From: Raoultibacter sp.
Lineage (GTDB): Bacteria > Actinomycetota > Coriobacteriia > Coriobacteriales > Eggerthellaceae
Length of the DNA: 34,692 nucleotides
Reading direction: 5' to 3'
Assembly (NCBI GenBank): GCA_036638175.1
Contig: JAVWLC010000001.1
Coordinates: forward strand, 1 to 34,692
The notes under the pieces are model-generated. The model did no database searches. It was given only the letters and a program-made list of their open reading frames with translations, and was not told the DNA's origin. This document shows positions 9,757-33,018 of the stretch, in pieces (position 1 is the stretch's first letter; the number at the start of each line of letters is the position of its first letter). The translations under genes and the position numbers were made by a program.

Positions 9757-10604
9757 TGTTAGAGATCTATGTACCATCAGGCAGATCTGATGTGCGTATC
9801 AAACGAATCACGGCAGACGCCATGCCTAGTCTGTATAACGCCCAGAAGTATAAACTGCCTGACCTATTTGTCGATACGTTAGCGCGATTCACCAACGTGA
9901 ACGTCCGTGAGATGTACCTCGAAGACTTCCGTTATATGATTGCGATGTTCGACAAAGATAGTTGGCCTCAGTCGCACCGTATGTATGAATGGCGTTGTAA
10001 CGAACCATTCTATGTTGATATGCACGGTGAGCGACACTATGAGCGACCAACAGGACGCAAGTATGTGAAAGTACCGTGCGGCGTTCTGAACACCGAAGAG
10101 GTCATGCGTCATCGCGTTATCTCTCATGAATGGTGCAAGCTGCCTGACGGTCTGCGCCATCCAACTGTACAGCGCTGGATTGAAGCCGAACTCCTTGCCG
10201 AAACATTCGACAGGACTATGGCAATGAATGCGATGTATATCGATAGTGACTTGCCTCTTGAGCAAACGCTGTTATACGTGAACCCAATGGAAATCATTAA
10301 CGCTGGGCATTACGCATTTACTAGCTGCGAACTGGAGACCAAGCACGTATGCAACCGTTGTTTCCGCACGTACACGTACACAACGCCGATTGACCTACTG
10401 GGTTATTTCCGTGTGTACTCTGATACATCTATGATGAATATGACGCTCGACCTTGCGTCTGCTAAGAGTATCTATGTGCCTGACGATGTGTCGATTAAGA
10501 AACTCCTGTACTGGCATAGCTCGTATGTTCAAGATAAGAACAAGGCCGAAGAGGCTAGAGCCATTGCTAGGTCTGCTGGTAGAGGTGGTCGTGGAGGTCG
10601 TTAA
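9756..10604 (+). CDS. Second tail/hub assembly chaperone, paralog of upstream gene
   Basis: 282 aa; VPSGR, WRCNEP (vs WRCNKP), CNRC; TGATG overlap; precedes tape-measure-like gene. Confidence 0.6.
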   Translation: MLEIYVPSGRSDVRIKRITADAMPSLYNAQKYKLPDLFVDTLARFTNVNVREMYLEDFRYMIAMFDKDSWPQSHRMYEWRCNEPFYVDMHGERHYERPTGRKYVKVPCGVLNTEEVMRHRVISHEWCKLPDGLRHPTVQRWIEAELLAETFDRTMAMNAMYIDSDLPLEQTLLYVNPMEIINAGHYAFTSCELETKHVCNRCFRTYTYTTPIDLLGYFRVYSDTSMMNMTLDLASAKSIYVPDDVSIKKLLYWHSSYVQDKNKAEEARAIARSAGRGGRGGR

Positions 10605-16700: not shown

Positions 16701-17485
16701 TCCCGTTAAATACAATTCAATCGAAGAAAGGGATTGACCCTCAAATGGAATATGAGGCTATCGTCATCGACAACAATGACCCTATGCGTATCGGCCAGAT
16801 TCGTGCGCGTATCATGGGGCTGACTGATGATATCTCTGACGAAAACATTCCGTGGATTCGCCCTGCTGTTGGCCATCTCGAAGGACTCAAAGGTGGCTCG
16901 CAGGGAGTTGTCTTTGGTGCGCAGTTCATTCCAACGCGTGGCGGTAAGGTAAGCGTTAAGTTTCCTACTGGCCAGTTGCATGAGGGGATGTACAGCACTA
17001 ACGTGCGCATGACGCAACAAGATATGTTGCCTGAGTTTCAGGTGAACTATCCGCATCGCGTGGGTGTACGTCTATCTACTGGTACCCAGCTCATCATTGA
17101 CCGCATGACTAACGAGCACTTCTTAGTTACCTCAGGCGACTTCAATATGACGATCATGGGCGATGTTAATCAGACTATTGTTGGTAACCAGCAACTGATT
17201 ATTACAGGCAGCAAGGGAGACATTCCAGACTACATTCTGAATGACCCAACGATGACGCCTAAGAATCTCAAGCCCGACCCGAAGAAGCGTATCAAGTTTA
17301 AAGGTACTCCCAAGGGTGACGCTGGTAATCAGTATACGAAGATCACTGGCAATCAGACTGTTGAGATTGGTGGTAATCGTGTGACCAAGATCAAAGGCAG
17401 TGATACGCTGGACGTTAAGGGAGGCGTTAAGATCGAATCTGGTCAGGAAGTAACTGTAAATGGACAGACAATCAACCTAAACTAA
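16697..17485 (+). CDS. Baseplate central spike (gp5/gpV-like OB-fold plus beta-helix)
   Basis: 262 aa; VIDNNDPMRIGQIRARI, IPW, P..GG.V.V.F motifs; C-terminal beta-helix repeats; no lysozyme insert. Confidence 0.9.
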   Translation: MIPLNTIQSKKGIDPQMEYEAIVIDNNDPMRIGQIRARIMGLTDDISDENIPWIRPAVGHLEGLKGGSQGVVFGAQFIPTRGGKVSVKFPTGQLHEGMYSTNVRMTQQDMLPEFQVNYPHRVGVRLSTGTQLIIDRMTNEHFLVTSGDFNMTIMGDVNQTIVGNQQLIITGSKGDIPDYILNDPTMTPKNLKPDPKKRIKFKGTPKGDAGNQYTKITGNQTVEIGGNRVTKIKGSDTLDVKGGVKIESGQEVTVNGQTINLN

Positions 17486-17495
17486 GGAATAAGTG

Positions 17496-18218
17496 ATGCT
17501 GCGTACATTAATGCACCGTACAATGAACTTCGCGTATATCGAACAAGGCGTCCCTCGTGTGTTGACTGCTCGTGTCATGATGGAATTTCCCATAGGCATG
17601 CAGACTCACGCCCAGCACATCCTGAGCAACATCGCAATGCAACGCAATAACCTCTTTGTTATTAACGACGAAGATGTGGAATATCAATCTGGAGCACTAG
17701 TAACGGATCATGTCACATGGAACTTATCTGATCGTACCGTCACAGCAATCCCACGCGCCGAGAAAGATCCTGCAAACCGTAGCTGCATCTGTTGTGCTAT
17801 GGCTGACCACTTTACGCGACAAATGGGACACTGGCTGCGGAGCCGTAAGCAAGACGCTGATAAGATTACGCTTGACGTTGTTCTTGCTGACCATGAAGAC
17901 TCTCAATTCATCGACGATAACGCCACTGACCTCGAAGCCCTATTTTTCCAGGCATCTGTCTATGTGCTGGAGAAGGGCTCCAGTACGTGGTCTAGCTATG
18001 GTGTGTTCTTTACTGATCAACGTAAGTTTGATGGCCATACCATCTTCCTTAAGGAAAAGGGGACAGCTCCAGTCAGTTCACCACATCTGCAAGTCAACAT
18101 CTCAGATTATAATCCTTACGGTAGCCCTTCTGATGGTGATAGTCTCCATGGCATCCTCAGTGGTTTCACTGATCGCTTCGGTATGTACAATGGTATCCTT
18201 ATGATCAAGGAAGAATAA
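17496..18218 (+). CDS. Hypothetical protein
   Basis: ~240 aa; AAGGAA RBS; ATG 17496 or GTG 17493. Confidence 0.7.
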   Translation: MLRTLMHRTMNFAYIEQGVPRVLTARVMMEFPIGMQTHAQHILSNIAMQRNNLFVINDEDVEYQSGALVTDHVTWNLSDRTVTAIPRAEKDPANRSCICCAMADHFTRQMGHWLRSRKQDADKITLDVVLADHEDSQFIDDNATDLEALFFQASVYVLEKGSSTWSSYGVFFTDQRKFDGHTIFLKEKGTAPVSSPHLQVNISDYNPYGSPSDGDSLHGILSGFTDRFGMYNGILMIKEE

Positions 18219-18508
18219 TGAATTTCGATATCTGGTGTGGAGATGTACCGACTGATGCCCAAGCTGCTCGCATGTACGGGCTTATGAGTAAAACGATGAA
18301 GAAGGTTGGTAAGCCTTTCTTCGCGCATACTCTCGTTCTATCTGGACCTGCTGCTGACGACGCATTCGATGTGTTGTCTCACGCTGGCTGCAACGTATCG
18401 AAGAAAGCGACCAAGCACCGTGTTAAACACGCTGTCGTTATCTCCGGTCCAGCGCCAAGCGACTTCATGCAGAAGCGCAAACAAGTGCTTATCTGCCCAG
18501 ACGTCTAG
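18218..18508 (+). CDS. Hypothetical protein
   Basis: 96 aa; TAATG overlap; AAGGAAG RBS. Confidence 0.65.
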   Translation: MNFDIWCGDVPTDAQAARMYGLMSKTMKKVGKPFFAHTLVLSGPAADDAFDVLSHAGCNVSKKATKHRVKHAVVISGPAPSDFMQKRKQVLICPDV

Positions 18509-18513
18509 TCCAT

Positions 18514-18521
18514 GCTAATTT
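18514..18521 (+). promoter_or_regulatory. Candidate late promoter GCTAATTT
   Basis: Intergenic; identical to 5562 and 23869. Confidence 0.55.
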
Positions 18522-18550
18522 AGAGTAGACTATCACAACAGGAGACGTCC

Positions 18551-19051
18551 ATGCTTTCTTTATCACAAGCGTGGGGCACAAAGTTTTTCCCCACAGCCGT
18601 TGAGCCAAGTGCTCTGACAACTATGATTTTCGCATCGGCCATGAACTTGACTGGTGCTCGTTCGCTATCTGAATCCGCAGTAGAACAGAACTGTCCACGT
18701 GCGGCACAGATTGCTCGTCCGTTTGCTGATGCTGCTCAATTCGTACAGCGTGTCTACAACAAACATCCTGAGTACCAAATCGTTGTATTAGGTACCAGTG
18801 GCATGGCGTCACATGCAATCGTTGTCGATGGTGACGGTGAGATTGTGTTTGACTCATACGCCAATTGCCGTGCGCAGTATTTCCCTAATACTCTGTATAG
18901 CTATTCGATGACAGGCTTCACGCAGGACCTCAAACCTCTTGCGTCAATCTCTCTGCACGGTGCTTACTGTACGCTGCAAGAAGAAGGCCTGTGGAAAGAT
19001 AATTCCTGGTCGTGGGACGTTGATATGCCCCGCGGGACTGACTATCTATGA
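18551..19051 (+). CDS. Hypothetical protein, possible papain/transglutaminase-like Cys-His-Asp enzyme
   Basis: 166 aa; AGGAG RBS; QNC..AA, SHAIVV, VFDS motifs in catalytic-triad order. Confidence 0.5.
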   Translation: MLSLSQAWGTKFFPTAVEPSALTTMIFASAMNLTGARSLSESAVEQNCPRAAQIARPFADAAQFVQRVYNKHPEYQIVVLGTSGMASHAIVVDGDGEIVFDSYANCRAQYFPNTLYSYSMTGFTQDLKPLASISLHGAYCTLQEEGLWKDNSWSWDVDMPRGTDYL

Positions 19052-19506
19052 TGATCAAAGTTCCCATATCCGGCAAGCTGCCTCACGAGAAAAAACCTCG
19101 TAAGCAGTCTGGGGTCATACCCTATCGCAAGCGCTCCGACGGCACGATTGAACTTCTATTAATTCGCACTACACACGCTGGTAATTGGGGTCTCCCAAAA
19201 GGCGGCGTTGAAAAAGGCATGACGCCACTGACAAGTGCGCTGAAAGAAGCTATGGAAGAAGCTGGTGTTCTCGGTAAGCCTAAAGACTTCGTGGATATCA
19301 TGAAGTATGTTAAGGGCAAGACCGGCCGTAAGCAACACGTCGAATGGTACATCATGAAGGTCAAGACTATGCTGACCGATTATGATGAAGCCCTGACGCG
19401 TGAGCGCAAATGGTTTAAAGCTGATAAGGCTCTGCGTAAACTGGATAAGAAACTTCGTCCAATCGTAGAGCAGGCACTGGACATTATCGACTCGTATGGC
19501 TTATAA
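19048..19506 (+). CDS. NUDIX hydrolase
   Basis: Nudix box GGVEKGMTPLTSALKEAMEEAGV preceded by WGLPK; SGVIPYR N-terminal motif. Confidence 0.92.
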   Translation: MMIKVPISGKLPHEKKPRKQSGVIPYRKRSDGTIELLLIRTTHAGNWGLPKGGVEKGMTPLTSALKEAMEEAGVLGKPKDFVDIMKYVKGKTGRKQHVEWYIMKVKTMLTDYDEALTRERKWFKADKALRKLDKKLRPIVEQALDIIDSYGL

Positions 19507-19984
19507 CCGGCGCAAGGCTGAACGTCAAACAGTTGTGTTTAAGTCAATGAGCCGTCCAGATAAGACGGCTTATCTTACTGAGGCTGTACAGCAATACTGG
19601 AATGGCAAACGCTACTCCTGTCATGTTGAACTTGGCCTGATAAAGCACGGTAACTTAAGGGCTGATGTGTTCTGCCTGAATACCAAATGTGATATGATTA
19701 TCACTGAGGTTAAGAGTTGCTGGGCGGACTTCAATACAGATAAGAAATGGCATAAGTACCTACCGTTCTGTATGCGTATGTATTTTGTCGTGGACGAAAC
19801 ACTGTTTGAGTCACGCGGTGATGAGATAATCGCTCGCATTAAGAAACGCGGGTGTGGTCTTATCGTCGTGAATAAGTTCGGCTCTGCATTTGTCAAAAGC
19901 AACGCCAAGCGAAAGACAATGAAGAACGAAATCGTGGCAAAGATGCTCATAAAAGCTGCATGGCGCGGCGGGCGTTTTGCCTAA
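19496..19984 (+). CDS. mmcB: MmcB-like PD-(D/E)XK nuclease
   Basis: E...RADV...EVKS..ADF..DKKW.KYLPFC..MYF, the MmcB family pattern. Confidence 0.75.
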   Translation: MAYNRRKAERQTVVFKSMSRPDKTAYLTEAVQQYWNGKRYSCHVELGLIKHGNLRADVFCLNTKCDMIITEVKSCWADFNTDKKWHKYLPFCMRMYFVVDETLFESRGDEIIARIKKRGCGLIVVNKFGSAFVKSNAKRKTMKNEIVAKMLIKAAWRGGRFA

Positions 19985-19993
19985 GGACTCATT

Positions 19994-20608
19994 ATGAAAC
20001 CAACCTATATTTTAGTTGAAGGCGGAGAGGGCGGCGGTAAATCAACTGTATGTACTGCTCTTTCTGAAATCTTAAATCAACGCGGCATGAACGTACTTCG
20101 TTTGCGAGAGCCTGGCGGTACACCTCTTGCTGAACATCTTCGGGATATCTTGTTGTCCAAGACCAACACGCTTAACGAAGATATGGATTCACGCACGGAG
20201 ATGCTGTTGTTCCTTGCTGCTCGTTCTTCCACGATGAATGCGTATGATCGTATTCTGGCTAATGAGCCTAACACGGTTATCATCTCTGACCGAGGCTTCC
20301 CGTCTACCTACGTATATCAGGCAGGTGAGTCAGATGTGAATGCGCAGATCTACCAGCATACTTGGGAAGCACTCGCGCCCGAGAATCGCCTGACTGTGCT
20401 GCTGACGTGTAGCTATGAAACGTCTGTAGAACGTCGTAAGCTGCGTGTTGGTGGTGAGGACAGAATCGAACAGCGCCAGACCAAAGAAGTGTTTGACCGT
20501 TACAACGAACGCTTCCGTAATGTTCCCGGCGGCTTTGACCTCGTTATTGATACCGAAGTTAACTCGGTATCTGACGTGGTGCGCCAAATTCTCGCAAAAC
20601 TGGTATGA
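19994..20608 (+). CDS. tmk: Thymidylate (dTMP) kinase
   Basis: P-loop VEGGEGGGKST, REPGGT, LLFLAAR, SDR..S..YQ, DRIE. Confidence 0.92.
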   Translation: MKPTYILVEGGEGGGKSTVCTALSEILNQRGMNVLRLREPGGTPLAEHLRDILLSKTNTLNEDMDSRTEMLLFLAARSSTMNAYDRILANEPNTVIISDRGFPSTYVYQAGESDVNAQIYQHTWEALAPENRLTVLLTCSYETSVERRKLRVGGEDRIEQRQTKEVFDRYNERFRNVPGGFDLVIDTEVNSVSDVVRQILAKLV

Positions 20609-21039
20609 ATCTCGCACTCTTTCCATCGCTTCCGCGAGCAAGGCAAGAGGCTGTACTGAAACGTATCTGCGAAGATAACGCATTCATTCCACAGTTCGAA
20701 CAACGCTTTCTAACAATGGCGATGTTCTCTGTCAGGAAGTCATTGAATCGCAACACGGATATTTTCTCGTACAGCCCGCCTACCGGCCAGCACATCGCTG
20801 TTGGTTATAGGGTTCAGTATCTGAAAGGTAAGTATGTTGCTGAACCGTGGTGCTTCGTTGTCCCTGATGCAATGAAGTCTGTTGGTGTTGAGATTAACTC
20901 TCGACCCGACAAAGCTATCTACTTTGGGTCCATCGTTCCACAGGACCTGATTGACCAGCATGGCACTCTGGCGTATAGCTTAATGCTCGGCAATCTTAAT
21001 TTGCTGAAACAGAACGCCTTCCGCATCGTTTCGTATTAG
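20605..21039 (+). CDS. Hypothetical protein
   Basis: 144 aa; ATGA overlap with tmk stop. Confidence 0.7.
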   Translation: MNLALFPSLPRARQEAVLKRICEDNAFIPQFEQRFLTMAMFSVRKSLNRNTDIFSYSPPTGQHIAVGYRVQYLKGKYVAEPWCFVVPDAMKSVGVEINSRPDKAIYFGSIVPQDLIDQHGTLAYSLMLGNLNLLKQNAFRIVSY

Positions 21040-21047
21040 GGATTTAT

Positions 21048-22805
21048 ATGAACATCATTCAAAAGCAGAATCAGGTCATTCGTGATCTAAGCATTATTCC
21101 GACTACAGTCCAGCGAGTCGGCGACGCCTTCATTGGCTTGAGTTCGAATAACGTTGGCTATGCGTGGCGTCAGGGTGAAATCTTTGACTTCGCTGCTGGT
21201 ATGTCCATCAGTATGCCTCACGTTAATGCCAACACTATTCAGCGTATCAGCGGTATGAATTACGCTGGCGTTAACCCTGAAGGTAACACCGTATTCATGT
21301 CCAGCACCAGTGCTGTGCATGTTGCTCTTGGTGAGCGTCAGGAACAACGTTACATTGCTACCGATAAAGACGTCCAACAAGTTACTGCTGACTTTGCTGC
21401 TGCTCTTTCAAACAGCGGTCAGTCTCTGGCTATTGCGTCTTTATCTGCGGCACGTACTTACGGCACGTATCAAGGTAAGAAAGTTGTTATCGATGATGCT
21501 AACGACGAGTACGATCTGGAACTAGAGAAGGGTGATAAGCTGAGCCTTGTCTACCTGAACCGCGACCGCTATGAGCTGCACCTGAAAGATGAACCGAAGA
21601 TTGTGTTCATCGTTCGTGGTCACTTACGTGCTGCTAACATCATCGGCCAGACAGTGTTTGATAAGCCGTTCGGCGTTGTCGGTTCTGATAAGAACAACAC
21701 GTTCATGCCAGTCGGTGTTGCTGGGCGTAACATTGCGACACCGATGCAGATCAAGAAAGATACTGTTATCTATACGTTCCGTAAGAAACACTATCTGCCG
21801 CAGAACCTCGTTGTTCCTCTTGAGAAGATGCTGGACGGCGCCGAGCTTAACAAGCTACTGACAGCACTCAAGCCAGTTAAAGAGAACAAGGCTATCACTA
21901 AAGGTAAGCTGGTGGGAGTTAAGCTGCCACCACTTCCAGGCGGACAGAAGATTAAGTCTGAAAGCCCAATCAAACGTGATAGCAAAGTTGTGTACGGCGC
22001 ATTCTTCCCTGTGTCTGCTGCCCAGCCTAATCGTAGCCGCATTATCTTTGGCGATAACATCAAAGACGTACAGAAGAAAGCTGTTGAAGCTATCGGACGT
22101 ATGGCAGTGCCTACCGATTACTATCTGTTTAGCACGTTCTCCACTGACGAGCTTTACGATCTGGCTAAAGGTGGCTCTGTTGTTATTCGTGCGACCGGTG
22201 TGTTGCAACACCAGTACCCTAAAGCCAAGCATATCAGCATGGGCTACATGGATAATCAAGTCGAGTACCGCGACCCTGTTAAAGTCGATGTGCCTGAACT
22301 GAAAATCCCAGCTATTAGCAGTAACAACGCTAAGATCGTGAAAGAGGTGCTGCGTCTTCTTGCTGAGGGCTACTTCAATACTGGTCTACATCTGTCAGGA
22401 CAACAACCTACAGGCGCTCTGAGTTTTGATGGTCTTATGGACCCTCGTGCTCGTGACCAGTTGACTGGTATCGCTCGCCGCATCGCAATGTATCTGAAAC
22501 AGAATGGTGCTGTCCTTCCTAAGGGTAGTATCAAACTGGCGTTCGGCAAACAACGCGCTGAAATCAGATTCAACCTGCCTAAGCTGTCGGGTGCTGCTCT
22601 GCAATCTGTAAATAAGATTCAGACAGACGAGCCAACATTGAACGCTCCTATTTATGCGACCATCAAGCCTAAACAGCCGACAGTCGAAATCACAGCATTC
22701 AACCGTCACACTGGTTACGTTACCGTTCGTGCCCAGCGTGGTCCTGAGCTATATTCTGAGCCATACGAAACGTACTACAATAATGTGGAACGAAAAGTAT
22801 TTTAA
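21048..22805 (+). CDS. Large basic protein, probable processed internal head protein
   Basis: 585 aa; N-terminal ~135 aa carries several SxS motifs, followed by a domain shared with 7868..8545. Confidence 0.6.
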   Translation: MNIIQKQNQVIRDLSIIPTTVQRVGDAFIGLSSNNVGYAWRQGEIFDFAAGMSISMPHVNANTIQRISGMNYAGVNPEGNTVFMSSTSAVHVALGERQEQRYIATDKDVQQVTADFAAALSNSGQSLAIASLSAARTYGTYQGKKVVIDDANDEYDLELEKGDKLSLVYLNRDRYELHLKDEPKIVFIVRGHLRAANIIGQTVFDKPFGVVGSDKNNTFMPVGVAGRNIATPMQIKKDTVIYTFRKKHYLPQNLVVPLEKMLDGAELNKLLTALKPVKENKAITKGKLVGVKLPPLPGGQKIKSESPIKRDSKVVYGAFFPVSAAQPNRSRIIFGDNIKDVQKKAVEAIGRMAVPTDYYLFSTFSTDELYDLAKGGSVVIRATGVLQHQYPKAKHISMGYMDNQVEYRDPVKVDVPELKIPAISSNNAKIVKEVLRLLAEGYFNTGLHLSGQQPTGALSFDGLMDPRARDQLTGIARRIAMYLKQNGAVLPKGSIKLAFGKQRAEIRFNLPKLSGAALQSVNKIQTDEPTLNAPIYATIKPKQPTVEITAFNRHTGYVTVRAQRGPELYSEPYETYYNNVERKVF

Positions 22806-22839
22806 GTCAGAAAAATCTGTAAATAAAAATTGCAGATAG

Positions 22840-23585
22840 TAATATCAGAAAGCGCGGAGGGTTTGTCCATTGCTCGCCGTGTTCCATGATAGTTTTCCTG
22901 TGCCGAGTATTTCCTGCTGACACAGGCCTCTAGCTGGTTTGAGTTCGCTCTGTAATCGTGAGGCATAACTCCAGCACCCACGCGATAGAATGGTATTCTG
23001 CCGCTGACGCTCACAAGGCCCAGCATTGATATAGCGTAATGCGTATTCTGATACAGACATACGAGCACGATACCATCCTCTTAGGCGCGTAGAACATTGG
23101 AACGTAATCTCAACGTTGTGGGTGTTCTTTTAGGGACCGTAGCGAACGTGCTACCTGACGCACATTGGTCTGGCAGAAACAGTGTGCGTTGGGGAGTCGC
23201 TTCCTGCATGCCGCTGCTCGCAGCCTGTTGAACATTGCCCTTAACAGTGTTCAATGGAGTGTGTCCTGCGTTCCATGCTGCTGACGTACTGCCATAGCTC
23301 ATTCACATTCTGAGTCGTGAAATATCATAATGGAAATTGTTAGCGGGCAATCGCATTCCATTATGATTTAATGCACACCAAGAGCGATTGTTAAAACGTG
23401 TATTAACTCCCGCAGATCACCGATGCGTCCACCTCCTTCGCTTCACTCATGTTGTTAGAGCATTCGGAACTTCCCTTTTCCGCCGAGTGTTCTTGATATG
23501 TGAGTGTCGTGCGCGGTTTTCCGCAACGCAGGCGGTAACGAGAGAAACAATGATTGAAACCCTAGTGGAGTCGGGCGAAGGGCAA
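22840..23585 (+). ncRNA. Candidate large structured non-coding RNA (family not recognised)
   Basis: ORF-poor gap in an otherwise tightly packed region; more than 10 hairpins plus long-range closing helices (22843-55/23041-53; 23062-67/23215-20; 23435-43/23573-81); many G-U pairs that work only on the + strand; ends approximate. Confidence 0.6.
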
Positions 23586-23602
23586 TCTAAAGTATCTTGA
23601 TC

Positions 23603-23618
23603 AACATTTGCAAATGTT
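23603..23618. promoter_or_regulatory. Perfect 16-bp palindrome AACATTTGCAAATGTT (possible operator) within a possible sigma70 spacer
   Basis: Self-complementary 16-mer; TTGATC (23597-602), 17-nt spacer, TACCTT (23620-25). Confidence 0.4.
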
Positions 23619-23649
23619 TTACCTTACAGTACAGACACAAGGAGCAAAT

Positions 23650-23793
23650 ATGCTTTTGTTCTTAGTGTCGCTGTTGGCATTGTTCATGCTTGGTGCAATG
23701 CTGACAATTCCCGAGAGTTCTCTGGCAAGTAAGCTCTCGGCGATTCATCCCGGCTTCGTGTCGTCAGGCACGCGGCACTCGCTTCGGGTGTGA
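23650..23793 (+). CDS. 47-aa small membrane peptide
   Basis: AAGGAG RBS at 23639-44; MLLFLVSLLALFMLGAMLTI hydrophobic N-terminus; followed by a terminator. Confidence 0.55.
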   Translation: MLLFLVSLLALFMLGAMLTIPESSLASKLSAIHPGFVSSGTRHSLRV

Positions 23794-23824
23794 GGGGATA
23801 GCGACAAATCCAAGCACAAACAAT

Positions 23825-23849
23825 GGGTGGCCTATGGCTGCCCGTTTTT
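23825..23849 (+). terminator. Rho-independent terminator
   Basis: GGGTGGCC-tat-GGCTGCCC then GTTTTT; same stem arms as the 4486 terminator. Confidence 0.75.
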
Positions 23850-23868
23850 GTTTCTGCTACAGTTCCAA

Positions 23869-23876
23869 GCTAATTT
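23869..23876 (+). promoter_or_regulatory. Candidate late promoter GCTAATTT
   Basis: Between terminator and PAAR gene; identical to 5562 and 18514. Confidence 0.55.
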
Positions 23877-23899
23877 ACGTCTAACAGAAGGAGATAATC

Positions 23900-24190
23900 A
23901 TGGGACAGAAAGCTATTCGTCTAGGTACTGATTTGTCTACTGGCCATAGCGGCTACTTCCCTGTTGTACCTGCACAAGCATCAGGCAATGTGTTCGTCAA
24001 CGGTAAAGGGAGCGTTAGACAAGGCGATGCGTATCAACCTCACTGGAAGCCCAAGAAGCCACCTCATGTAGGTAAAGCTACGTCAGGCTCAAGTGTGCGT
24101 GTTAATGGCAAGCCTGCTCAACGTGCTGGTGACGGTAATACTTGTGGCGACACTGCATCTAACGGTAGTTCTAATGTGAGATTTGGCTAA
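23900..24190 (+). CDS. PAAR-domain spike tip protein
   Basis: 96 aa; AIRLG, VFVNGKGSVRQGD, VRVNGKPAQRAGD..TCG, GSSNVRFG; His/Cys metal ligands. Confidence 0.92.
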   Translation: MGQKAIRLGTDLSTGHSGYFPVVPAQASGNVFVNGKGSVRQGDAYQPHWKPKKPPHVGKATSGSSVRVNGKPAQRAGDGNTCGDTASNGSSNVRFG

Positions 24191-24615
24191 TGGCAGGAAT
24201 CGGAGTTCGACTCATAGACGTGCCGATTAATGAGCGTGTCTATTGTGATATAAACGCGTGGATTCAACTCGAACCGCGTGATAACGTTCAGAACATGGAC
24301 AGTATCGTCCAGAAGATATTGATGGTGATTGGTACTCGTAAGAAGTCGCGCAAGTGGCGTGAGAACTTCGGGGCCGACGTCTATAAATACCTGTTCGAGC
24401 CGTTCGATCAGACAACGGCAGAATGGATAGCAACCTATATGCGTCTTGCACTTGAAGACCCAATGAACGGTCTGACGCAAGATGTTACCGATGTACAAAC
24501 AGCCTGTACGCCAAGCACACAGTACGAACAAACCTACGTGTGTGTCATCTCATGGCGTTGTCCTAAACTTGAGGACAAGCAGTCTGTAACGTTCGCCATG
24601 AGGGCCCAGAAATGA
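24190..24615 (+). CDS. Baseplate wedge protein, gp25/GpW-like
   Basis: 141 aa; SIVQKILMVIGTRK.SR..RENFGADVYKYLFEP gp25 motif. Confidence 0.85.
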   Translation: MAGIGVRLIDVPINERVYCDINAWIQLEPRDNVQNMDSIVQKILMVIGTRKKSRKWRENFGADVYKYLFEPFDQTTAEWIATYMRLALEDPMNGLTQDVTDVQTACTPSTQYEQTYVCVISWRCPKLEDKQSVTFAMRAQK

Positions 24616-26081
24616 GCACCAGCATTCTCAACACGTATCTGACTCACGAACAATTTGCGCGTGATTTCCTACAGCGTATCAACTCGTCCTCATACTGGAC
24701 TGATGCCCAAGTTAGTTCCTTAACGTCATTGCTTGCTGATGCACTTGGCGATATCGGTGTGACTAACAGCTACGCTTCATTGATTGCTGCGCGTGAAGCA
24801 TTCAGCCGCTTGGCCAGACGTAACAGTTCGTTGCTGGCTAACGCTCGTTATCTTGGTGTGGATATCGGCCGCAAGTCGGTAAGCACCGTGACTGCATCTG
24901 TTGCTAACTTGACAGCAAACAAGGTGACGCTCGATAAGCATACACCATTCACTATCGGCAGTGTTAGTGGCTTACTCGCAGAAGTGACGCAGTGGGAACC
25001 AGGCGAAGTCAAAGAAGCTGACTTCATCATCGGTGAGTTGTTCTCCTACAGCCAGTTGATCGTCAATCCTTTTGACTATGCTGTGTATCGCTTAGGTACT
25101 GAGAACTTCCAGCTTACATCTGACCTGCGTGTTTGGTTCGAACATCCTAACGGCACCAAGATTGAGTTCCAGCGCTTCGACAAGTGTTTGTTTGAAGCAT
25201 ACGCTGGTCAGCAAATCTTCCTCGATGTGACAACAGATGAGGGTGATGTTGAGATTCAATTCGGTGGCGAGCAGTGGGGCGTTCAACCACCAGCTGGCTA
25301 TACGATGCGTGTACAGGGCATTAAAGCTCTCGGCTCTGCTGGTAACTCTGACGCTATTGGTCTGAAAATCCAGTGCTTGACTAACCCGCAGATTCAAGGT
25401 AAGACTGTTGGTGCTATCATTGGTGGCTCTGATGAAACGCCTGTCGATTACTATCGTCATTACAGTCCTATCGTCGGGCGTAGTCGTAAGAAGTTGATTC
25501 GCCGTGATGAATGGAAAGCGGCTATCGCTCTCTATCCAGATGTTGCCGACGTTGTTGTCCAGGGTCAAGCTGAAATAGCACCTAATGATAAAGAGTGGCA
25601 AGGAGTCGTGCGTGTCTGCGTGTTACCGCGTAATACAAGTACGTGGGGAGGCGTTAACCCTAACCCTACTTCTGCCCAGTGGACTAAGTTCCTTAACTGG
25701 CTTGCACAGTACCATAGCCCACTTGATGTGCAGACGTGGAACCCAGATAAGCTGCAAATCGATTGCACGATTAATGTGGCTCTCTTTGCTGATGCGCCTG
25801 GTACTCGAAGCTCGAACGAAGCAACGCTACAGGCCGCCGTACTCAAACTGTTTGAACGTAAGCCGGGAATGTTAGGTAAACGTCTTGCACTGTCGGACAT
25901 AACAGACCGTGTGCTGTATGACTTTGCTGATCCAGACAAGCCTGTGCGTAGACCAGAAGTAGATTACTGTAACATCGAAAGCCCTATTCAGGATATCATT
26001 CCTAATACGGTTCTGGAGTATGTTGCGCTGCGTAACTTGCGTATCAATATAACCTACAGTGAAAGGAAGATGACGCGGTGA
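24612..26081 (+). CDS. Baseplate wedge protein (gp6/baseplate J-like)
   Basis: 489 aa; AREAF..LARRNSSLLANARYLG, EIQFGG, G.AGN, GGSDET motifs. Confidence 0.85.
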   Translation: MSTSILNTYLTHEQFARDFLQRINSSSYWTDAQVSSLTSLLADALGDIGVTNSYASLIAAREAFSRLARRNSSLLANARYLGVDIGRKSVSTVTASVANLTANKVTLDKHTPFTIGSVSGLLAEVTQWEPGEVKEADFIIGELFSYSQLIVNPFDYAVYRLGTENFQLTSDLRVWFEHPNGTKIEFQRFDKCLFEAYAGQQIFLDVTTDEGDVEIQFGGEQWGVQPPAGYTMRVQGIKALGSAGNSDAIGLKIQCLTNPQIQGKTVGAIIGGSDETPVDYYRHYSPIVGRSRKKLIRRDEWKAAIALYPDVADVVVQGQAEIAPNDKEWQGVVRVCVLPRNTSTWGGVNPNPTSAQWTKFLNWLAQYHSPLDVQTWNPDKLQIDCTINVALFADAPGTRSSNEATLQAAVLKLFERKPGMLGKRLALSDITDRVLYDFADPDKPVRRPEVDYCNIESPIQDIIPNTVLEYVALRNLRINITYSERKMTR

Positions 26082-29000
26082 AATCAAACACTCTAGCCTT
26101 TAACATTGACTTCGTAGAAGCCAATCCAGCATGGGCTGAGTTGTTCGAGATGATGGACGCGCATAACGACGAACATAACCTTGCAGTGATTAAACAACTG
26201 CTGGATATCCGTCGTATCAACGAAGACACGAATGACGTGCTGGCCGAAGAAGCTATTCGCCAGCTCGGCATCAACATCGCCCGTGATGTGATGGCGTATC
26301 GTCTGCCTTCGTTGAAGCGCGTCATAGATTGCTTGCCTGACTGGCAGCAAGTCTCTGGAACAACGCAGTGGAATAAGTTCGTGGGCATGTTGCTTGGTGG
26401 CCAGTTTGATACAAATCGTTTGTATACTGCTGACTATCAGACTTTCATCCCTACTCCTCTAGGTACGCTGATTCAAGATGGCGGCCAGTGGTATAAGACG
26501 AACAAGGTTAACCTTGAAGTAGATGCCTACCTGATTGATTCTGGCCTTGACCTGACGATCACTAAAGACGCAGAAAAGGATGTTGTTAATGCGCTGCAAG
26601 AAGTAGGCATGACACAGCAAGAAGCAGAAGACTGGTTCAATAACCACATCGGCTTCGACCCTGTGAATAACGACATTGAGCAACGCACGGCGCGGAGCGC
26701 GATGTTCCAACGACGCATCTCCGAACTGTTTTATCAATGGGCTCCAATCGAAGAAGTGTTAGAAGGTGTTTATGCTACTATCAACCTTGGTGCTAAACTC
26801 TTTCTCGGTGCTCATGTTGTTGTTGAGCACGTCCGTCGTTTTAACGTTGGTGCTCCATTGCAATCGTCTATTACGTTCCTCCAGCCCGAGTTTCTACGTG
26901 GTGGGGAATGGACTACATTCGGGGCTATCGTTAAGTACAGCGATAACACAGAAGAAACCGTAGAAGTGTATGTTGAGGACAACGTGTGGATTGAGGAGCG
27001 TGACAGCAATCGCGTTCGCTTCAAAGAGCCGCTTGCGATCAGTGTGCTGACTCTTACGTTGAACTACAACGGCACGAAACAACAGATGGAACTGCGCATC
27101 TTCCCAATAGGGATTGAGCCTGACCCCGATGAGCTAATGATTGAATGCCCTACGCTCTACGGTAACTCAAGTTCCAAGATTCGTGTCTATGGTAAATATT
27201 CCTCAGGCCTGACGAAAGAACTGACCGATAGCGGTATGTTGCGCTTCGATACATCACTCGGTGTGATTGATGGTACGACACTCATTCTGCCTAGCGTCGA
27301 GGCAGACACAACGCTTGATATCAGTGTGCTGTATCAGGGCCAGTTCTATATGAACAAAACCCAAGAGTTTAAAGTCAATCGCAGTGTGCATGACTTAGTT
27401 CCTATCTCATTGCGTATCATCCTTGAGGATGAATTACCTCAAGGCGTCGATACACCAATCAAGTATGCTGTCCAGTACAACGATGGCACATCTAAGTTGG
27501 GTATTGCACAGGCGCGTACAACTTCGGAACACACTGAGATTGTAGAGAACGTCTTGAAGTCTGGTATTATGCGTCAAGACTACATGACCTCAGTCTATGC
27601 CGAGTTTGGTGAAGTCACTCCCATTCAGGCAGTGAAGCAGGTAACGATGAAGGCGCCTGAGATTAATCTGGCTACTATCGATATCGTTCTGCCTGACCCA
27701 GTTGTCGAACGAACTACTGTTAGGCCTAAGGCTATGGCGCTGTTCGTGCTTGCCTCTGCTACACCACAACAGATTGCTGATCGTGATCCAGCAATCGTAG
27801 TCGCATACACAGAAGTATTCGGCAACTGGTTCAGTAGTCAGGACGGCCAGAATGGGATTGCAGCGCTGCCTAAAGTCGATCCAAAGTCCGGTGAGTTCCA
27901 AGCACCGCTTATCGATGGAGATGCCGTTAACTACTCGCTGCATTTCAACTACATTGACGGCAGCAACGCTGTAACGTTCAACCGTATCTTCCCTATTCAT
28001 GACACGATCATGATTCCGCGTTCGATTGACCTGCGTTCTTCACCTACTATCAATAGCGCATCGACTCTTATGTTGCCTACAGTGTGTTTGTGGAATAACG
28101 GTCAAACGTATGCGGCAGCGGCTACGGTTAAAGTGGAATACATGCCGTCTGCGTCTGCTGTAGAAGAAGCTCGCCAGCGTACAATTCGATTGCAGCAACA
28201 AGCGATTGAACAGGGGCAGGACCCGACGCAGTTCGATCCCAATAAGCCTGACTATGCTCGTTGGGTAACGCTGAACGTAAGTCAATCGCCAAATGACGTA
28301 TACGACCCAATCATGGGACGTAAGTTCAAAGAATACGTGCTGTACTTCCAGGGTGACCTGCATGGCTCTGCGCGTATCACGATGGACTATGAGTTCGATG
28401 GCACTAAGTTGACCAACTATCGTGACCTACAACTTATCCCTGCACGTTCGCTGGTGGACAGTATTACTATCGAATGTCCAGACCATATGTATGATCGTTC
28501 GCGCACGTTCGTTCGACTGCTTGCAACATACGTTGATGGCACTCAAGAATATGTGACGGCTGCTGAGTGGAAGGGCAACTGGCCAGACAAAGACACGGAT
28601 GACTATCAAGTTCTCCAGTTTTCACCTGGTCGCTACAACGGTACGTCTATTGTTGAGATTATCGAAGGCCGCCCTCCTACAAGCTATAAAGACTTCCGTG
28701 ATATGGCTATATCTAAACTGCCGATGTTCAATCAGATTGGTAGCTTAGTAGATCTGGAGAAGGCGTATTATGATGGCGCTATTCTGCAAACAGGCAAATG
28801 CAACACCGTGACGTATACTCAGGTGCTTGCATCGTTCTTCCGTGTGAGTAACAAGATCGATATGGTCATTACACCACAGCCTAAGCAAAGCGTTAACAAC
28901 ATCATTAACAGTCGTATCGAAGGCGCTACGCAGATTTCTGCTGGTGTGCTATCCGAGTCCTACACTCTGGTCAACACGTACAAGATGGGAGGCGTTGCTC

Positions 29001-30604
29001 GTACACTGGATGGTTCTTACATTCAGGAAGAAGGCAGAACGTTTGAGCTTGAGGTTGATTCTGAATGGGCAGTAGTCCAGAACTACTACACTGAGGAAGG
29101 CCCTAACAATACGCAGATGCTTGTGCCTACGTCTGATATTGTTGCTGAGATAGATGCTGATGGTACGCTGACTCCTGCCCAAAACGTTAACGGTGCTGTC
29201 CAGATTCGTGCGCGTTATACGTGTGACCAGTATCAGATCGAGAAGACGCTGATTGTGTTCCTGACACAGGCAAATACTTATCTGCGTTCAATCGGTATCA
29301 CTGGCCCAGATGTTGTGTGGGATGTGTCTGACAGAAACCCAACTATCGGTTATGAGAACGGTCGTTGGTATGTGCCTTATGAGTTGCGTGTTATTATCGA
29401 CCCTGACTCTGAGCTTGTTACTACCGATGCTCTGTGGTCAATAGGAGATGAAACAAACGTTGATGGAGTTTCCATTGACCCTCTGAATGGTCATCTATTC
29501 ATTGGTCAGTCTCAATTGTCTGACGGGCATATTGGTCTTCGTGCTGTATTTACCAAGCAGAACCCAGCAAGCCTTGCAGATGAGACTATCGTAGGCACAC
29601 GCACTATTGAACTCCAGACGCAGAACACGATTCTTAATGGCTATATCGAAAACCCTAAAGGCAATATTTCGCCTAATACTGACTACAGATTCGTTGCTTA
29701 CTATGAACGGCGTAGCGGTCAGTCTGGTTCGAGTATTCTGCCTGATGCTAACTCGGTTAAGTTCAAATGGAACGTGATCAAGTCTGTTAGTGGCTTTGCC
29801 TTGTCGCAAGATGGTACCTTCCGCTTCCCGGCATCGAAAGACCCGCAGACGGTTCAAGTGGAATGTATTATCACTGAGCAGCGCACGGAGATTAGTCTTG
29901 TTCAAGAGATTACTTGTCCAGGCATTGGATTCCCGCAAGACCTAACAGTCGGCGGTTACACCAACGTCCGTGATGATAGCTCTATGCAGATGAACGCGCT
30001 TCTTGGTCGTACAGGTACATTCGCTAAGGAAGACGTGAGTGCAAAATGTTTGTGGCAGATTACAAACAGTAAAGGTGACGTTGTTGATGTGCAGGGCATT
30101 AGCATTAACGCGCAGACAGGTAGACTAACACTCGGCAACTTGCTGAATGATACCGAGTTTGGTGTTAAGGCGCTCTACATTGAAGGGCAGCAACGCCTTG
30201 AACAAACGCACTTCATGAAAGCCTTCTCGTCTTACCCTCGCTTCGGCGTTGCACCATTCGGTCTGACTACTATCAGCATCGCTATGGCTCAACTACCTAC
30301 GCGTCTTCGTTCGAACAACGGTGGTACGTTCGTGCTATCTACCAAGAACGATGAGTACGGTTATTTTGTTGTGCGTCAGTCGTATGGGCAAGCTGTATTT
30401 AGTGCGGCTGCTGATGGACAGGGTAACGTCAACAAAGGCTGGCTTGGCTTCGATGGCGCTCAATGGCCTGTTACAGGAGACAACGGTAAGAGAGGTCCGA
30501 TTGTAGGTAAGATGGTGTATGATAACCTGACAGAAAACGTCTTGATTTATCGCACTAACGCTCGTGCATTTGGCTCCGCTGTGCTTACGGTTCGATACCA
30601 ATAA
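26078..30604 (+). CDS. Large baseplate wedge protein (gp7/P2 gpI-like N-terminus) with Ig-like repeats
   Basis: 1508 aa, GTG start overlapping upstream stop; repeated I.GP..V...W....G.SI....G.L Ig-like units. Confidence 0.65.
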   Translation: MKSNTLAFNIDFVEANPAWAELFEMMDAHNDEHNLAVIKQLLDIRRINEDTNDVLAEEAIRQLGINIARDVMAYRLPSLKRVIDCLPDWQQVSGTTQWNKFVGMLLGGQFDTNRLYTADYQTFIPTPLGTLIQDGGQWYKTNKVNLEVDAYLIDSGLDLTITKDAEKDVVNALQEVGMTQQEAEDWFNNHIGFDPVNNDIEQRTARSAMFQRRISELFYQWAPIEEVLEGVYATINLGAKLFLGAHVVVEHVRRFNVGAPLQSSITFLQPEFLRGGEWTTFGAIVKYSDNTEETVEVYVEDNVWIEERDSNRVRFKEPLAISVLTLTLNYNGTKQQMELRIFPIGIEPDPDELMIECPTLYGNSSSKIRVYGKYSSGLTKELTDSGMLRFDTSLGVIDGTTLILPSVEADTTLDISVLYQGQFYMNKTQEFKVNRSVHDLVPISLRIILEDELPQGVDTPIKYAVQYNDGTSKLGIAQARTTSEHTEIVENVLKSGIMRQDYMTSVYAEFGEVTPIQAVKQVTMKAPEINLATIDIVLPDPVVERTTVRPKAMALFVLASATPQQIADRDPAIVVAYTEVFGNWFSSQDGQNGIAALPKVDPKSGEFQAPLIDGDAVNYSLHFNYIDGSNAVTFNRIFPIHDTIMIPRSIDLRSSPTINSASTLMLPTVCLWNNGQTYAAAATVKVEYMPSASAVEEARQRTIRLQQQAIEQGQDPTQFDPNKPDYARWVTLNVSQSPNDVYDPIMGRKFKEYVLYFQGDLHGSARITMDYEFDGTKLTNYRDLQLIPARSLVDSITIECPDHMYDRSRTFVRLLATYVDGTQEYVTAAEWKGNWPDKDTDDYQVLQFSPGRYNGTSIVEIIEGRPPTSYKDFRDMAISKLPMFNQIGSLVDLEKAYYDGAILQTGKCNTVTYTQVLASFFRVSNKIDMVITPQPKQSVNNIINSRIEGATQISAGVLSESYTLVNTYKMGGVARTLDGSYIQEEGRTFELEVDSEWAVVQNYYTEEGPNNTQMLVPTSDIVAEIDADGTLTPAQNVNGAVQIRARYTCDQYQIEKTLIVFLTQANTYLRSIGITGPDVVWDVSDRNPTIGYENGRWYVPYELRVIIDPDSELVTTDALWSIGDETNVDGVSIDPLNGHLFIGQSQLSDGHIGLRAVFTKQNPASLADETIVGTRTIELQTQNTILNGYIENPKGNISPNTDYRFVAYYERRSGQSGSSILPDANSVKFKWNVIKSVSGFALSQDGTFRFPASKDPQTVQVECIITEQRTEISLVQEITCPGIGFPQDLTVGGYTNVRDDSSMQMNALLGRTGTFAKEDVSAKCLWQITNSKGDVVDVQGISINAQTGRLTLGNLLNDTEFGVKALYIEGQQRLEQTHFMKAFSSYPRFGVAPFGLTTISIAMAQLPTRLRSNNGGTFVLSTKNDEYGYFVVRQSYGQAVFSAAADGQGNVNKGWLGFDGAQWPVTGDNGKRGPIVGKMVYDNLTENVLIYRTNARAFGSAVLTVRYQ

Positions 30605-30690: not shown

Positions 30691-33018
30691 ATGGCCACTG
30701 AATCTATCTACGTTAACGCACTGCGTTTAACGCCTCAGGGAGAACAGGCCGTTGCGAACGCGAACGCTGGTGGGTTGGCTATTCAACCTGTAGCGTTCAA
30801 AGCAGGTGACTTCATTGGCTCTAACCCGTCTGAGGTTCCAGAGCAGTTACTTGGCAACGAGCTTGCGTCGGGCGCATTGTCATATGTTCAGGTACTTACC
30901 GAGAACAGTGCCCGCTTCATCTTTGATATTCAAGTCAAATACGTCGCAGGCGAAGCGCTGAAACGTGTTGGTGAAATACTGATTATGCTCTCTGACAATA
31001 GGCCGTTTGGTCATGTTGTTCTGCAAGAGCCAATCATTGCCGTACCCAACTCTATCAGTCGCGTGAGTTTGCTCGTACATATCCAGCAGGACATCCAAAA
31101 GATTCTTGCTGTTAAGATGGCGGACTACACATCAATCCCGAGTGTTGCTACTCTGGAAAATCTGCCTAGTCTTAAAGACAACGTGTTCAATGCTGTGTCA
31201 GTTCTCGACCTGCATGTTAACTCTGATGGTTCTCGCTCACCTGGTGCTGCGTATCGTTATGGGGCTGGCTCATACTATTGGGCGTTCAGCGAACATGACC
31301 GTATCTATAGCGGCACTATTGGTAGTGGCTTCATCAACGCGAACACGTTTAAAATCAATTCTCTCACTGGTATGAAAGAAGGTGAGATTGTCCTTGTACA
31401 AACAGTAGCTGGGCCTGGTGCTGGCGCGTGTCGTCATTTCAAATACACCGGCGGACAGTTCGTTAACATGGACAGTCCAATCGCATTTATCAGTGCGCAG
31501 ACAAACATCGCTATCTGGCGTCGTATCACTAACCCGACTACACCGAGCGTTGGTCTGCCGTGGCCTGTTGATAACGATGTGCCTGATACGTGGGCGTTAA
31601 TGCGCGGCAAAGACAATAAACCTTATTGGGGCCCTGTCAATAGCCAGCGTCAAACGACTGCGAGCCTGTTCGTTCCACCGGGCAAGATGCTTTTCAGTTC
31701 TGTTGTGACTACTGCAACTCCTGATAAGCTACGCTATCAACTGACCGAGATTTTGGATAGCTCTACCGACTTGTTCGTTGGTACGTCGAGCGTTCTCCAG
31801 CCTCGTACAGCGTATTCAGTTCAGGAAGATCAGCTCCTGCTTTCATCTTATCCTGAACAGCAGATGACGCTTGACCTGAGACAGTTCCGTATCGAGCCAT
31901 CTCAAGGCCACGTTGTTCTGTTTGAAACGTATGACGGTGTTGGTGACGGACAGACTACTCAATACACTTTGGGTAATCGTCCTGTAGAAAGCGCCGACAT
32001 GGTATTCTGTGTCGTAGGAAACACTTGGCAGCCTAGTACGGTCTATAAGATCAGTAACGGCAACAAGTTGCAGATGACGCAGCCCATTCCGTCTGGTCAG
32101 AAATACACTTTCTATGTTGCTCGCTATGAAGAACGTGCTGGGTGGTCTACTCGTCTGCGTGTTAGTCAGTATCGAATGCCTTATGATGCTGATACATTTA
32201 TTCTGCCGACTAGCCCACTGAATAAAGCGCACTGCGTTGTCGCTGTTGGTGGCTTGGCAGTCCACACGTCAGACTTCACGGTTGCTGGTAACTCGTTAAA
32301 AACAACATCGCCTATTCCGCACGATACGCTTGTCGAAGTAACAGTATTTGAGAATATCAAAGCTGTAGGTTCGAAAGACAGTTCTGTTGACGGTGTTATC
32401 ATCGACGTTATTCCTACGCCGAAGGGTTACATGTTCAAGCGTCAAGGGCTTGCTCCGATTGAAGTACCTATCGCCACACCTGAGATTGTTAGTGGTGAAG
32501 GTATTGTGATTGAAGGGCAGTGGCCTGAGATTAAGATCAGCAATACTCAGGCACTAGCCGAAGAAGCTGACCCGAAGAACATGTTCAACATCCAGCAGAC
32601 TCAAGTTGACTCGGAAGAAGTTGTTATCCAGCAGCGTATTGAGTTCAGCAAGGCTGTTATGCTTACGTGTACAGCAGACTTTCAGTGCCAGCTTGGTCCT
32701 GGATTTGCGTCCACCAGCGGTAAAGAACATATCGAATATGTTCTGTCGTTTAAAGGCCCTGGTGTAAGCGAAGCTGAATATGGACGTGGGCTTAAAGGCA
32801 CAGGCGCAGCGGGTTTCAACGTGGTACAATCGGACAACGCTCCAGAGATTATCGCGTACTCGAACGTTAGCCTGACGCAGATGTTTGTTGTGCTGAAAGA
32901 GAACCAGCCTCAGGGATATATCGATATCGTTGCTAAGGTGCGTATCACCGATGCGCAGATCACTAGCTACGGATCGAAGCTGATTGGTAACTTGTGCATT
33001 AAGGTCGAACCGAAATGA
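30691..33018 (+). CDS. Tail collar / fibre-attachment protein with internal beta repeats
   Basis: 775 aa; N-terminal LTPQG...FKAGD collar-type motif; three GDGQTTQYTL...LQP..Y-type repeats; AAGGAG RBS. Confidence 0.65.
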   Translation: MATESIYVNALRLTPQGEQAVANANAGGLAIQPVAFKAGDFIGSNPSEVPEQLLGNELASGALSYVQVLTENSARFIFDIQVKYVAGEALKRVGEILIMLSDNRPFGHVVLQEPIIAVPNSISRVSLLVHIQQDIQKILAVKMADYTSIPSVATLENLPSLKDNVFNAVSVLDLHVNSDGSRSPGAAYRYGAGSYYWAFSEHDRIYSGTIGSGFINANTFKINSLTGMKEGEIVLVQTVAGPGAGACRHFKYTGGQFVNMDSPIAFISAQTNIAIWRRITNPTTPSVGLPWPVDNDVPDTWALMRGKDNKPYWGPVNSQRQTTASLFVPPGKMLFSSVVTTATPDKLRYQLTEILDSSTDLFVGTSSVLQPRTAYSVQEDQLLLSSYPEQQMTLDLRQFRIEPSQGHVVLFETYDGVGDGQTTQYTLGNRPVESADMVFCVVGNTWQPSTVYKISNGNKLQMTQPIPSGQKYTFYVARYEERAGWSTRLRVSQYRMPYDADTFILPTSPLNKAHCVVAVGGLAVHTSDFTVAGNSLKTTSPIPHDTLVEVTVFENIKAVGSKDSSVDGVIIDVIPTPKGYMFKRQGLAPIEVPIATPEIVSGEGIVIEGQWPEIKISNTQALAEEADPKNMFNIQQTQVDSEEVVIQQRIEFSKAVMLTCTADFQCQLGPGFASTSGKEHIEYVLSFKGPGVSEAEYGRGLKGTGAAGFNVVQSDNAPEIIAYSNVSLTQMFVVLKENQPQGYIDIVAKVRITDAQITSYGSKLIGNLCIKVEPK

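Follow-up and report, generated by a model that had tools for sequence, protein, structure and literature searches.

Covariation supports a modular, pseudoknotted RNA in the structural gene cluster of a jumbo myophage

A conserved, base-paired element of about 1.0 kb occupies positions 22838-23853 on the + strand of the window, by which we mean the whole stretch of 34,692 nucleotides analysed, and we assign it to a structured RNA with a probability of roughly 0.93. The window (34.7 kb) is a cluster of head, tail and baseplate genes from a jumbo myophage, in which those for the major head protein, tail sheath, two tail tubes, hub, Nudix and dTMP kinase are followed by that of a 585-aa KMPT-N protein, a gap, and then the PAAR, gp25-like and wedge genes. 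The gap spans 22806-23899 (1094 nt) and no other gap between the 32 main + strand ORFs exceeds 83 nt, so that the first-pass annotation had rightly called it the only long gap in the window. That annotation had also proposed a large phage non-coding RNA, possibly of an undescribed family, a proposal supported in part, by a structured + strand RNA that lies outside Rfam and covaries in 16-18 homologues. Its traits are those of the large ornate phage RNAs: a length over 500 nt, many covarying stems and pseudoknots, a phage-encoded locus and a mostly non-coding sequence.

To evaluate the structure, three alignments of the window with its close homologues were used (A2, 18 rows; A3, 16 rows; A4, 17 rows), in which the aligned homologues are 57-75% identical to the window and rows L014 and L074 of A2 are nearly identical to each other; near or exact duplicates (L008, L009, L012, L015, L016, L019, L021, L022, L030, L031) and the distant genera were left out. 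For A2, 94.6% of the cells in the proposed pairs could pair and 36 of 65 pairs changed on both sides, and the respective values for A3 were 92.9% and 36 of 85; none of 500 shuffles equalled either result, and slid controls left only 30-42% of cells paired. The double changes extend to the pseudoknots in homologues from the Alexandravirus group of jumbo phages. Because the A2 and A3 structures were drawn by eye from the same sequences, the paired-cell controls are biased toward them, and therefore all column pairs were also ranked by APC-corrected mutual information. The 60 top-ranked pairs contained 9 of the 65 proposed pairs (among ~61,000 column pairs) and 10 of 88 (among ~78,000), against an expectation of 0.06-0.07, in a ranking that shares the phylogeny of the homologues. 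In A4, folded by RNAalifold, 28 of 57 pairs changed on both sides, the terminator included. The covariation check in syntenic homologues that had been suggested thus gave a strong signal across 16-18 homologues.

For the whole unit, 22838-23853, the minimum free energy had a z-score of -6.2 on the + strand and -0.65 on the - strand (25 shuffles); the 3′ domain supplies much of this, 23640-23839 alone reaching -4.2. The shorter interval proposed initially, 22840-23585, gave a weak -1.69 on the + strand (20 shuffles) against 0.00 on the - strand, while the 200-nt windows inside it ranged from +0.14 to -1.46 and flanking coding windows reached -2.96. Because the windows inside this interval score no better than the flanking coding windows, hand-folding alone does not rise above chance, and covariation, not folding energy, is the real evidence for structure. 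The claim of a ~750-nt RNA at 22840-23585 holds as to a structured + strand feature but not as to its ends, which were set too short: the unit reaches ~23853 and includes a small ORF. Among the non-Watson-Crick cells of the proposed pairs across homologues, G-U outnumbered A-C by 266 to 49, as expected from the earlier remark that such positions are mostly G-U on the + strand, and this excess therefore favours the + strand. Between 22840 and 23640, no reading frame is conserved in 19 sequences, whose lengths vary modulo 3 and whose stop-free stretches differ; protein coding in this part was rejected, since no frame is kept and the three ORFs, which we attribute to chance, have no PHROG match. 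The first-pass annotation had named a conserved coding frame as counter-evidence, and 5′ of 23640 these sequences hold none.

The eight helices named in that annotation are all literally in the sequence where it had placed them, and their fates in up to 18 homologues differed. Four of them hold, at 22897/22921 (94 of 106 cells pair), 23157/23180 (184 of 185), 23227/23245 (187 of 194) and 23457/23483 (166 of 172). The "perfect 12-bp" helix at 23324/23356, with 146 of 195 cells paired, survives as two shorter stems and is perfect only in this strain; three other runs have two changes inside it. Three helices are likely wrong and were set aside for poor pairing in homologues: the closing helix 22843-55/23041-53, in which 65 of 122 cells pair as aligned; 23062/23215, where 56 of 73 cells pair and competing helices do better (54/54 and 71/72); and 23435/23573, where 131 of 162 cells pair without covariation and a competing local helix covaries (66/70). 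By eye, some homologues have an equivalent closing helix that is unlike the first of these in sequence. The pseudoknots and the internal repeat had both been missed.

The 5′ 750 nt is built from one repeated pseudoknotted module. Its core begins with strands f and a (AGCNGG) and stem e and, after a linker rich in U and A, continues with GUG and the partner of f, AAC and the partner of a; after the core come helix g with AU and AGG flanks and a variable inserted domain, and most copies close with a terminal hairpin that has a 3-nt A-N-A bulge and whose loop finishes in GG. On the + strand of the window, the array opens with a variable 5′ domain (22843-22926), in whose hairpin (22897-22926) 5 of 6 pairs change on both sides. 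Module copy A follows at 22927-23128, with f at 22927-30/22960-63, a at 22933-37/22971-75, e at 22941-43/22948-50, g with its AU and AGG flanks at 22980-84/23086-90, inserted helices at 22987-23079 and a hairpin at 23091-23128; a, e, g and the inserted helices covary, and f is kept with one-sided change only. Tail domain 1, a short helix and a long hairpin, occupies 23139-23192, and in several relatives, though not in the window phage, its 7-nt loop is that of the E. coli tRNA-Glu anticodon. Tail domain 2 (23213-23257) comprises a 4-bp hairpin and a 13-bp hairpin with a kept 7-nt loop, CCCUUAA (23238-23244). Module copy C extends over 23324-23587, where a helix H1 (23324-23367) encloses strands of a and e; its core has a at 23343-47/23409-13, e at 23348-53/23385-90, f at 23371-76/23398-403 and g at 23419-22/23533-36, followed by the inserted domain (23425-23529) and the terminal hairpin (23552-23587; A-N-A bulge at 23557-59, loop ending in GG). 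Over 28 copies, two of them poorly aligned, 97% of the cells of helix a pair; the terminal hairpin covaries over 24 copies, its bulge adenines and a C-G pair being invariant; and helix g with its flanks was found in 27 of 37 cores (43 anchors minus 6 judged false) as against 6.4% in shuffles. For the conserved 7-nt loops, a search by eye gave no consistent cis partner.

Module number varies by the gain or loss of whole copies, with two in the window and two to four in relatives. According to the alignments, a third copy, B (~250 nt), is absent here from the junction 23212/23213 and inserted there in Alexandravirus, SNUABM_7/13, Y3 and two metagenomic loci. Counts by eye are two copies for Yoloswag and the Rivsvirus-type loci, at least two for JA11, three for JA29, at least three for fHe-Yen9-02, three or four for L070 and four for L071. 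The two-module form is genuine: an assembly artefact was rejected, because single contigs bridge the B-less junction in runs of three studies, and one RNA-run contig bridges it too. Covariance models recovered the modules in sequences on which they had not been built. The terminal-hairpin model found a held-out Yersinia copy (E 2e-8) and, in the whole Y3 genome, gave two matches, both at the array locus. The core model, trained on Alexandravirus, Y3 and close metagenomic cores only, found held-out cores in L070, L071 and L027, which are Salmondvirus-like and Yersinia phage loci, at E 1e-6 to 0.04 (best matches 1e-6 to 1e-3); JA11 and JA29 matched more weakly, and the Yoloswag and Rivsvirus (SNUABM_5) cores were missed. 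Salmondvirus-type loci have an extra hairpin between modules (L028:5080-5115, L029:5085-5120, L070:5050-5085, L071:4875-4915), with an 8-9-bp stem changed on both sides, as judged by eye, and a promoter-like word in its loop.

Two overlapping copies of a phage-type promoter motif lie on the + strand at 22817-22831 and 22830-22844. The motif regex matches this single site in the window, and of 12 homologous loci tested, 11 have it where the array begins; the 5′ end of the RNA is predicted near 22838-22851. The Lu11 record annotates on its reverse strand a "putative middle/late promoter" sharing the first nine letters of the array motif, a site that the regex itself does not match, and PaBG is described, in an excerpt of PMC7412058, as encoding its own sigma factor. 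Downstream of copy C, a 16-nt palindrome (23603-23618), possibly a self-dimerisation site, is present in 10 of 16 rows of A3 and absent in 6, with symmetric changes in two of the 10. A Shine-Dalgarno sequence (23639-44) then precedes a 47-aa ORF (23650-23793) with a hydrophobic N-terminus, which stays open over 47-53 aa in all 17 rows, has its TGA or TAA stop at a common place in 16 of them and a TAG further on in the remaining one, and matches no Pfam or PHROG family. Overlapping this ORF is a structured 3′ domain (23666-23815) with a long-range helix at 23666-72/23800-06, a pseudoknot at 23688-93/23810-15 and a multi-stem junction; both strands of the pseudoknot change together in Yoloswag and the Salmondvirus-type loci. 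The predicted 3′ end is an intrinsic-terminator-like hairpin with a U tract (23822-23853), kept in A4; the terminator scan is weak alone, with one found against 1.5 expected by chance. In Yoloswag, SNUABM_5 and the Salmondvirus-type loci, the 3′ domain stands by itself, mostly with a second promoter-like motif upstream, and several small genes separate it from the array; the window RNA is thus likely a fusion of two conserved elements.

Beyond the terminator, + strand positions 23869-23876 hold a probable separate late promoter element that may serve the PAAR-baseplate operon. Its motif, GCTAATTT, occurs on the + strand in three intergenic gaps (5562, 18514 and 23869), preceding the tail sheath gene at the first and the gene at 18551 at the second, and is likely a late promoter element. 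An optional ORF of ~36-41 codons is found between terminator and PAAR in L003, L005, L017, L073, L024 and L025.

A blastn search gave 52 phage records, all of Erwinia or Dickeya phages, 32 of them with at least 80% coverage at ~72-77% identity. The upstream protein has relatives in 57 records, with Yoloswag, SNUABM_5, fHe-Yen9-02 and the JA phages at 43-52%. The family appears confined so far to one clade of 250-270-kb myophages that infect enterobacteria. The terminal-hairpin model found no module in PaBG, Lu11, NCTB or Afa-NA1, with Y3 as a control that matched twice; PaBG, Lu11 and NCTB show no comparable gap before PAAR, and the Afa-NA1 stretch has no PAAR gene. GTDB genomes gave no match by protein or exact pattern. 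The window itself is contig C1 of an assembly with 2.8 Mb in 519 contigs, probably a phage contig binned with a cellular genome, and no second copy of the element was found elsewhere in this assembly. Contig C85 of G000 has six tblastn matches to proteins from the PaBG, Lu11, NCTB or Afa-NA1 loci and may be a second phage contig or carry shared metabolic genes. The fHe-Yen9-02 record (OR620964.1; L026, L027) both starts and ends inside the RNA locus and has several short ORFs annotated across the modules. Indeed, several records call short non-conserved ORFs inside the RNA and miss the conserved 47-53-aa peptide, an annotation that the present results correct.

The gene right behind the RNA differs between genera while the RNA is kept. 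In distant genera, a small helical protein lies just behind the array (L024:5888-6088, L025:5949-6161, L028:5513-5824, L029:5780-6091, L071:5584-5841); it has at least 7,168 homologues, belongs to PHROG 1761/5120, and in Alexandravirus and Y3 is found at 17-20 kb, in longer frames. It is a candidate anti-defence sponge family, with Acb2/Tad1-like hints from a Pfam match below the cut-off (E 0.019) and an Atlas cluster with 18% PF24729; no PDB sequence match and no clear fold match were found for it. A KMPT-N domain occurs in two window genes, 7718-8545 and 21048-22805, the latter directly upstream of the RNA. The KTSC domain is described as RNA-binding in an excerpt of Iyer et al. (PMC7824862), and the KMPT-N protein next to the RNA is a possible protein partner. 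Elsewhere in the window, 33015-34451 encodes a collagen-repeat tail protein with a weak C-terminal HINT-domain match (E 9e-5, below the cut-off), at a place where NCTB is annotated with an intein-containing tail protein, and 10604-13276 encodes a tail protein of 890 aa whose C-terminal domain is VgrG3-like (E 1e-63) and which has lysin-like PHROG matches.

Six RNA runs contain part of the stretch. Of four runs inspected over 17400-29399, three have contigs covering 27-30 of 30 bins at similar low depth; the fourth, X18, reached a depth of 14.6 on 23060-23208 and is too thin to use, with cover in 7 of 30 bins. As the flanks are covered at similar depth, phage DNA or general mRNA explains these contigs, which place the phage in RNA libraries but do not demonstrate a discrete RNA.

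As to function, we tentatively favour, at less than even odds, a trans-acting multivalent decoy, each module of which would bind a host factor that recognises RNA. The RNA is probably transcribed from its own phage promoter and would, in middle or late infection, build up as an abundant, discrete transcript; each module may fold as an autonomous tertiary unit, as the conservation of unpaired junction bases suggests, module copy number would set the dose, and the likeliest targets would be tRNA-directed or RNA-sensing anti-phage proteins. Module gain and loss, the conserved junction bases, the promoter-like motif of its own and the changing downstream gene together suggest that the RNA itself is selected and works by valency, and its being kept while the next gene differs between genera argues for action in trans. 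A hint at the target is suggested by tRNA-like traits. The tRNA-Glu anticodon loop, together with a CUC variant one base away, was counted 14 times in 23.9 kb of these RNAs, counts that are not independent because the homologues are related, and 4 times in the 33.6 kb of coding DNA from the window; such loops mostly close hairpins, at several non-equivalent places, and the Glu-type loop varies within Alexandravirus and is missing from the window phage. The GG-ending terminal loops resemble tRNA D-loops, and the whole phage records of five relatives contain no tRNA gene (the control found 14 of 14). A match of the g strands of copy C to the tRNA-Glu anticodon stem was put down to chance, as the identity is not kept in other modules. 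Counting against the decoy, no terminator was found between the array and the first downstream gene, so that the array always sits as an mRNA leader, and the possible anti-defence neighbour gene is weakly supported and lies elsewhere in the Alexandravirus genomes.

A rival reading is a tandem riboswitch-like leader, in which each module would bind a ligand or protein and control translation of the small gene that comes first after the array, which in the window encodes the membrane peptide. A start site follows within tens of bases of the array in every genus, with no terminator between, and the SD at 23639-44 has a potential pairing partner within module C, an anti-SD-like pyrimidine run at ~23432-23438. 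This run, however, is unchanged where the SD is altered (L003, L007), single modules are not followed by a terminator, the downstream gene differs between genera, and the peptide gene of Yoloswag and the Salmondvirus-type loci is separated from the array and preceded by a similar promoter-like motif, which together leave the leader decidedly unlikely. Not quite so unlikely is an RNA-only oligomer or cage in the manner of GOLLD and ROOL, self-assembled through display loops and the palindrome. The size of ~1.0-1.3 kb, several pseudoknots, a palindrome with symmetric changes and conserved unpaired loops with no covarying cis partner speak for it, while two to four modules would fit a fixed symmetric cage poorly, the palindrome is missing in 6 of 16 rows, and neither a tRNA island nor a GOLLD or ROOL model match was found.

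A compact pseudoknot core with invariant unpaired bases, in tandem copies that are cleanly gained and lost without internal terminators, could also mark a catalytic or processing array, either a new self-cleaving ribozyme class or monomers released by an RNase, that would divide the primary transcript into ~250-nt units. In its favour, the helix order f-a-e may be likened to the P2-P4-P5 core of RNase P and to that of glmS. We consider this improbable, more so than the leader: the modules exceed the 50-80 nt expected of self-cleaving ribozymes according to an excerpt of PMC10085705, helix a lacks a bulged U, and no Rfam ribozyme matched even at E up to 10. A DNA-level element (an origin, a packaging site or protein-binding repeats) or a chance spacer might be suspected from the fHe-Yen9-02 record, which begins and ends in the locus, and from the weak z-score of the earlier interval, but the G-U excess, the strand asymmetry, the covarying pseudoknots and the sense-strand covariance-model matches make it very improbable.

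Taken as a whole, a bolder synthesis is doubtful, though less so than the cage: a new phage RNA class of autonomous, tRNA-flavoured tertiary modules in tandem, forming an all-RNA anti-defence sponge of tRNA-less jumbo phages (or a new catalytic RNA), tuned by module number and here fused to a dual-function peptide-coding domain. If the decoy reading is true, the RNA would be a counterpart of the protein anti-defence sponges, and if the modules are catalytic, they would represent a new ribozyme fold. Few phage RNAs of such size are known. The carriers include cultured and sequenced phages (Y3, Alexandra, AD1, JA11, JA29, Yoloswag and fHe-Yen9-02); as these naturally have two, three or more modules, a single 250-nt unit could be assayed alone and the effect of dose compared.

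Compared with known RNA families, the element is apparently an undescribed family of modular structured phage RNA. Rfam gave no match at the gathering score in the window, at E≤10 in the region, or in 13 homologous loci, its best sub-threshold matches being miRNA, lncRNA or sRNA fragments at chance level; the covariance-model scan that had been proposed thus matched no family, and none of the models for known self-cleaving ribozymes and riboswitches matched either. ARAGORN found no tRNA or tmRNA in the window or the 13 loci, only isolated loops resembling tRNA, which together with the empty Rfam search agrees with the initial impression that tRNA, tmRNA and RNase P hallmarks are missing. RNase P RNA has a P4 helix with a bulged U, whereas all 28 counted copies of helix a have 5 bp without interruption, and no Rfam match to RNase P RNA was obtained. 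Resemblances to Pistol, glmS, glycine, cobalamin and sarcin-ricin RNAs were rejected, since helix order or conservation did not fit. No description of the RNA was found in the literature searched, including the excerpts of Eckert et al. (PMC10085705) and Iyer et al. (PMC7824862); Day et al. 2018, as excerpted in PMC6143709, mention non-coding insertions in JA phages without an RNA, and short pieces of the RNA may figure among the candidates of Fremin et al. 2023 (PMC10690425).

The 3′ domain shares one trait with type I toxin mRNAs of the hok type, in which a short hydrophobic ORF is locked in long-range pairing: its own ORF is short, hydrophobic and held in long-range structure, without a Pfam or PHROG match. 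ToxI and the phage pseudo-ToxI RNAs are tandem pseudoknot repeats of variable copy number that act as protein decoys, with near-identical units of ~36 nt; unlike these type III toxin-antitoxin RNAs, the window RNA has no Rfam match, and the window contains no toxin gene. The first-pass annotation had placed the RNA in the size class of ROOL and GOLLD, which is apt for size and ornateness but not for kinship, as there is no model match and no tRNA island, and the array has tandem modules and a coding 3′ domain. GOLLD, in an excerpt of PMC12286853, is a large ornate phage RNA with pseudoknots, often >800 nt and of unassigned function; GOLLD often lies near tRNA islands. The window RNA is likewise large, ornate, pseudoknotted and phage-borne. 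GOLLD, however, joins one conserved 3′ domain to one variable 5′ domain, and the window RNA, tandem modules with a coding 3′ domain, lies within the structural gene cluster, with neither Rfam match nor tRNA island. ROOL is described in the same paper as a phage or prophage RNA with multiple pseudoknots, and kissing-loop and A-minor bridges are reported there for cages of the GOLLD/ROOL type; the solved ROOL example is ~660 nt as against 1.0-1.3 kb here, where the RNA is repeat-built and has no model match or tRNA island. The ncRNA arrays of UG27 reverse transcriptases, according to an excerpt of bioRxiv 10.64898/2026.09.22.753630, consist of pseudoknotted units that are diverse in sequence and conserved in structure. 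No RT was found among the window ORFs and no PF00078 match in the records of five relatives, searches that a very divergent RT could escape, and the units here measure ~250 nt rather than 135-167 nt and belong to a lytic jumbo myophage; yet, as in the UG27 arrays, variable pseudoknotted units are strung together and gained or lost as wholes.
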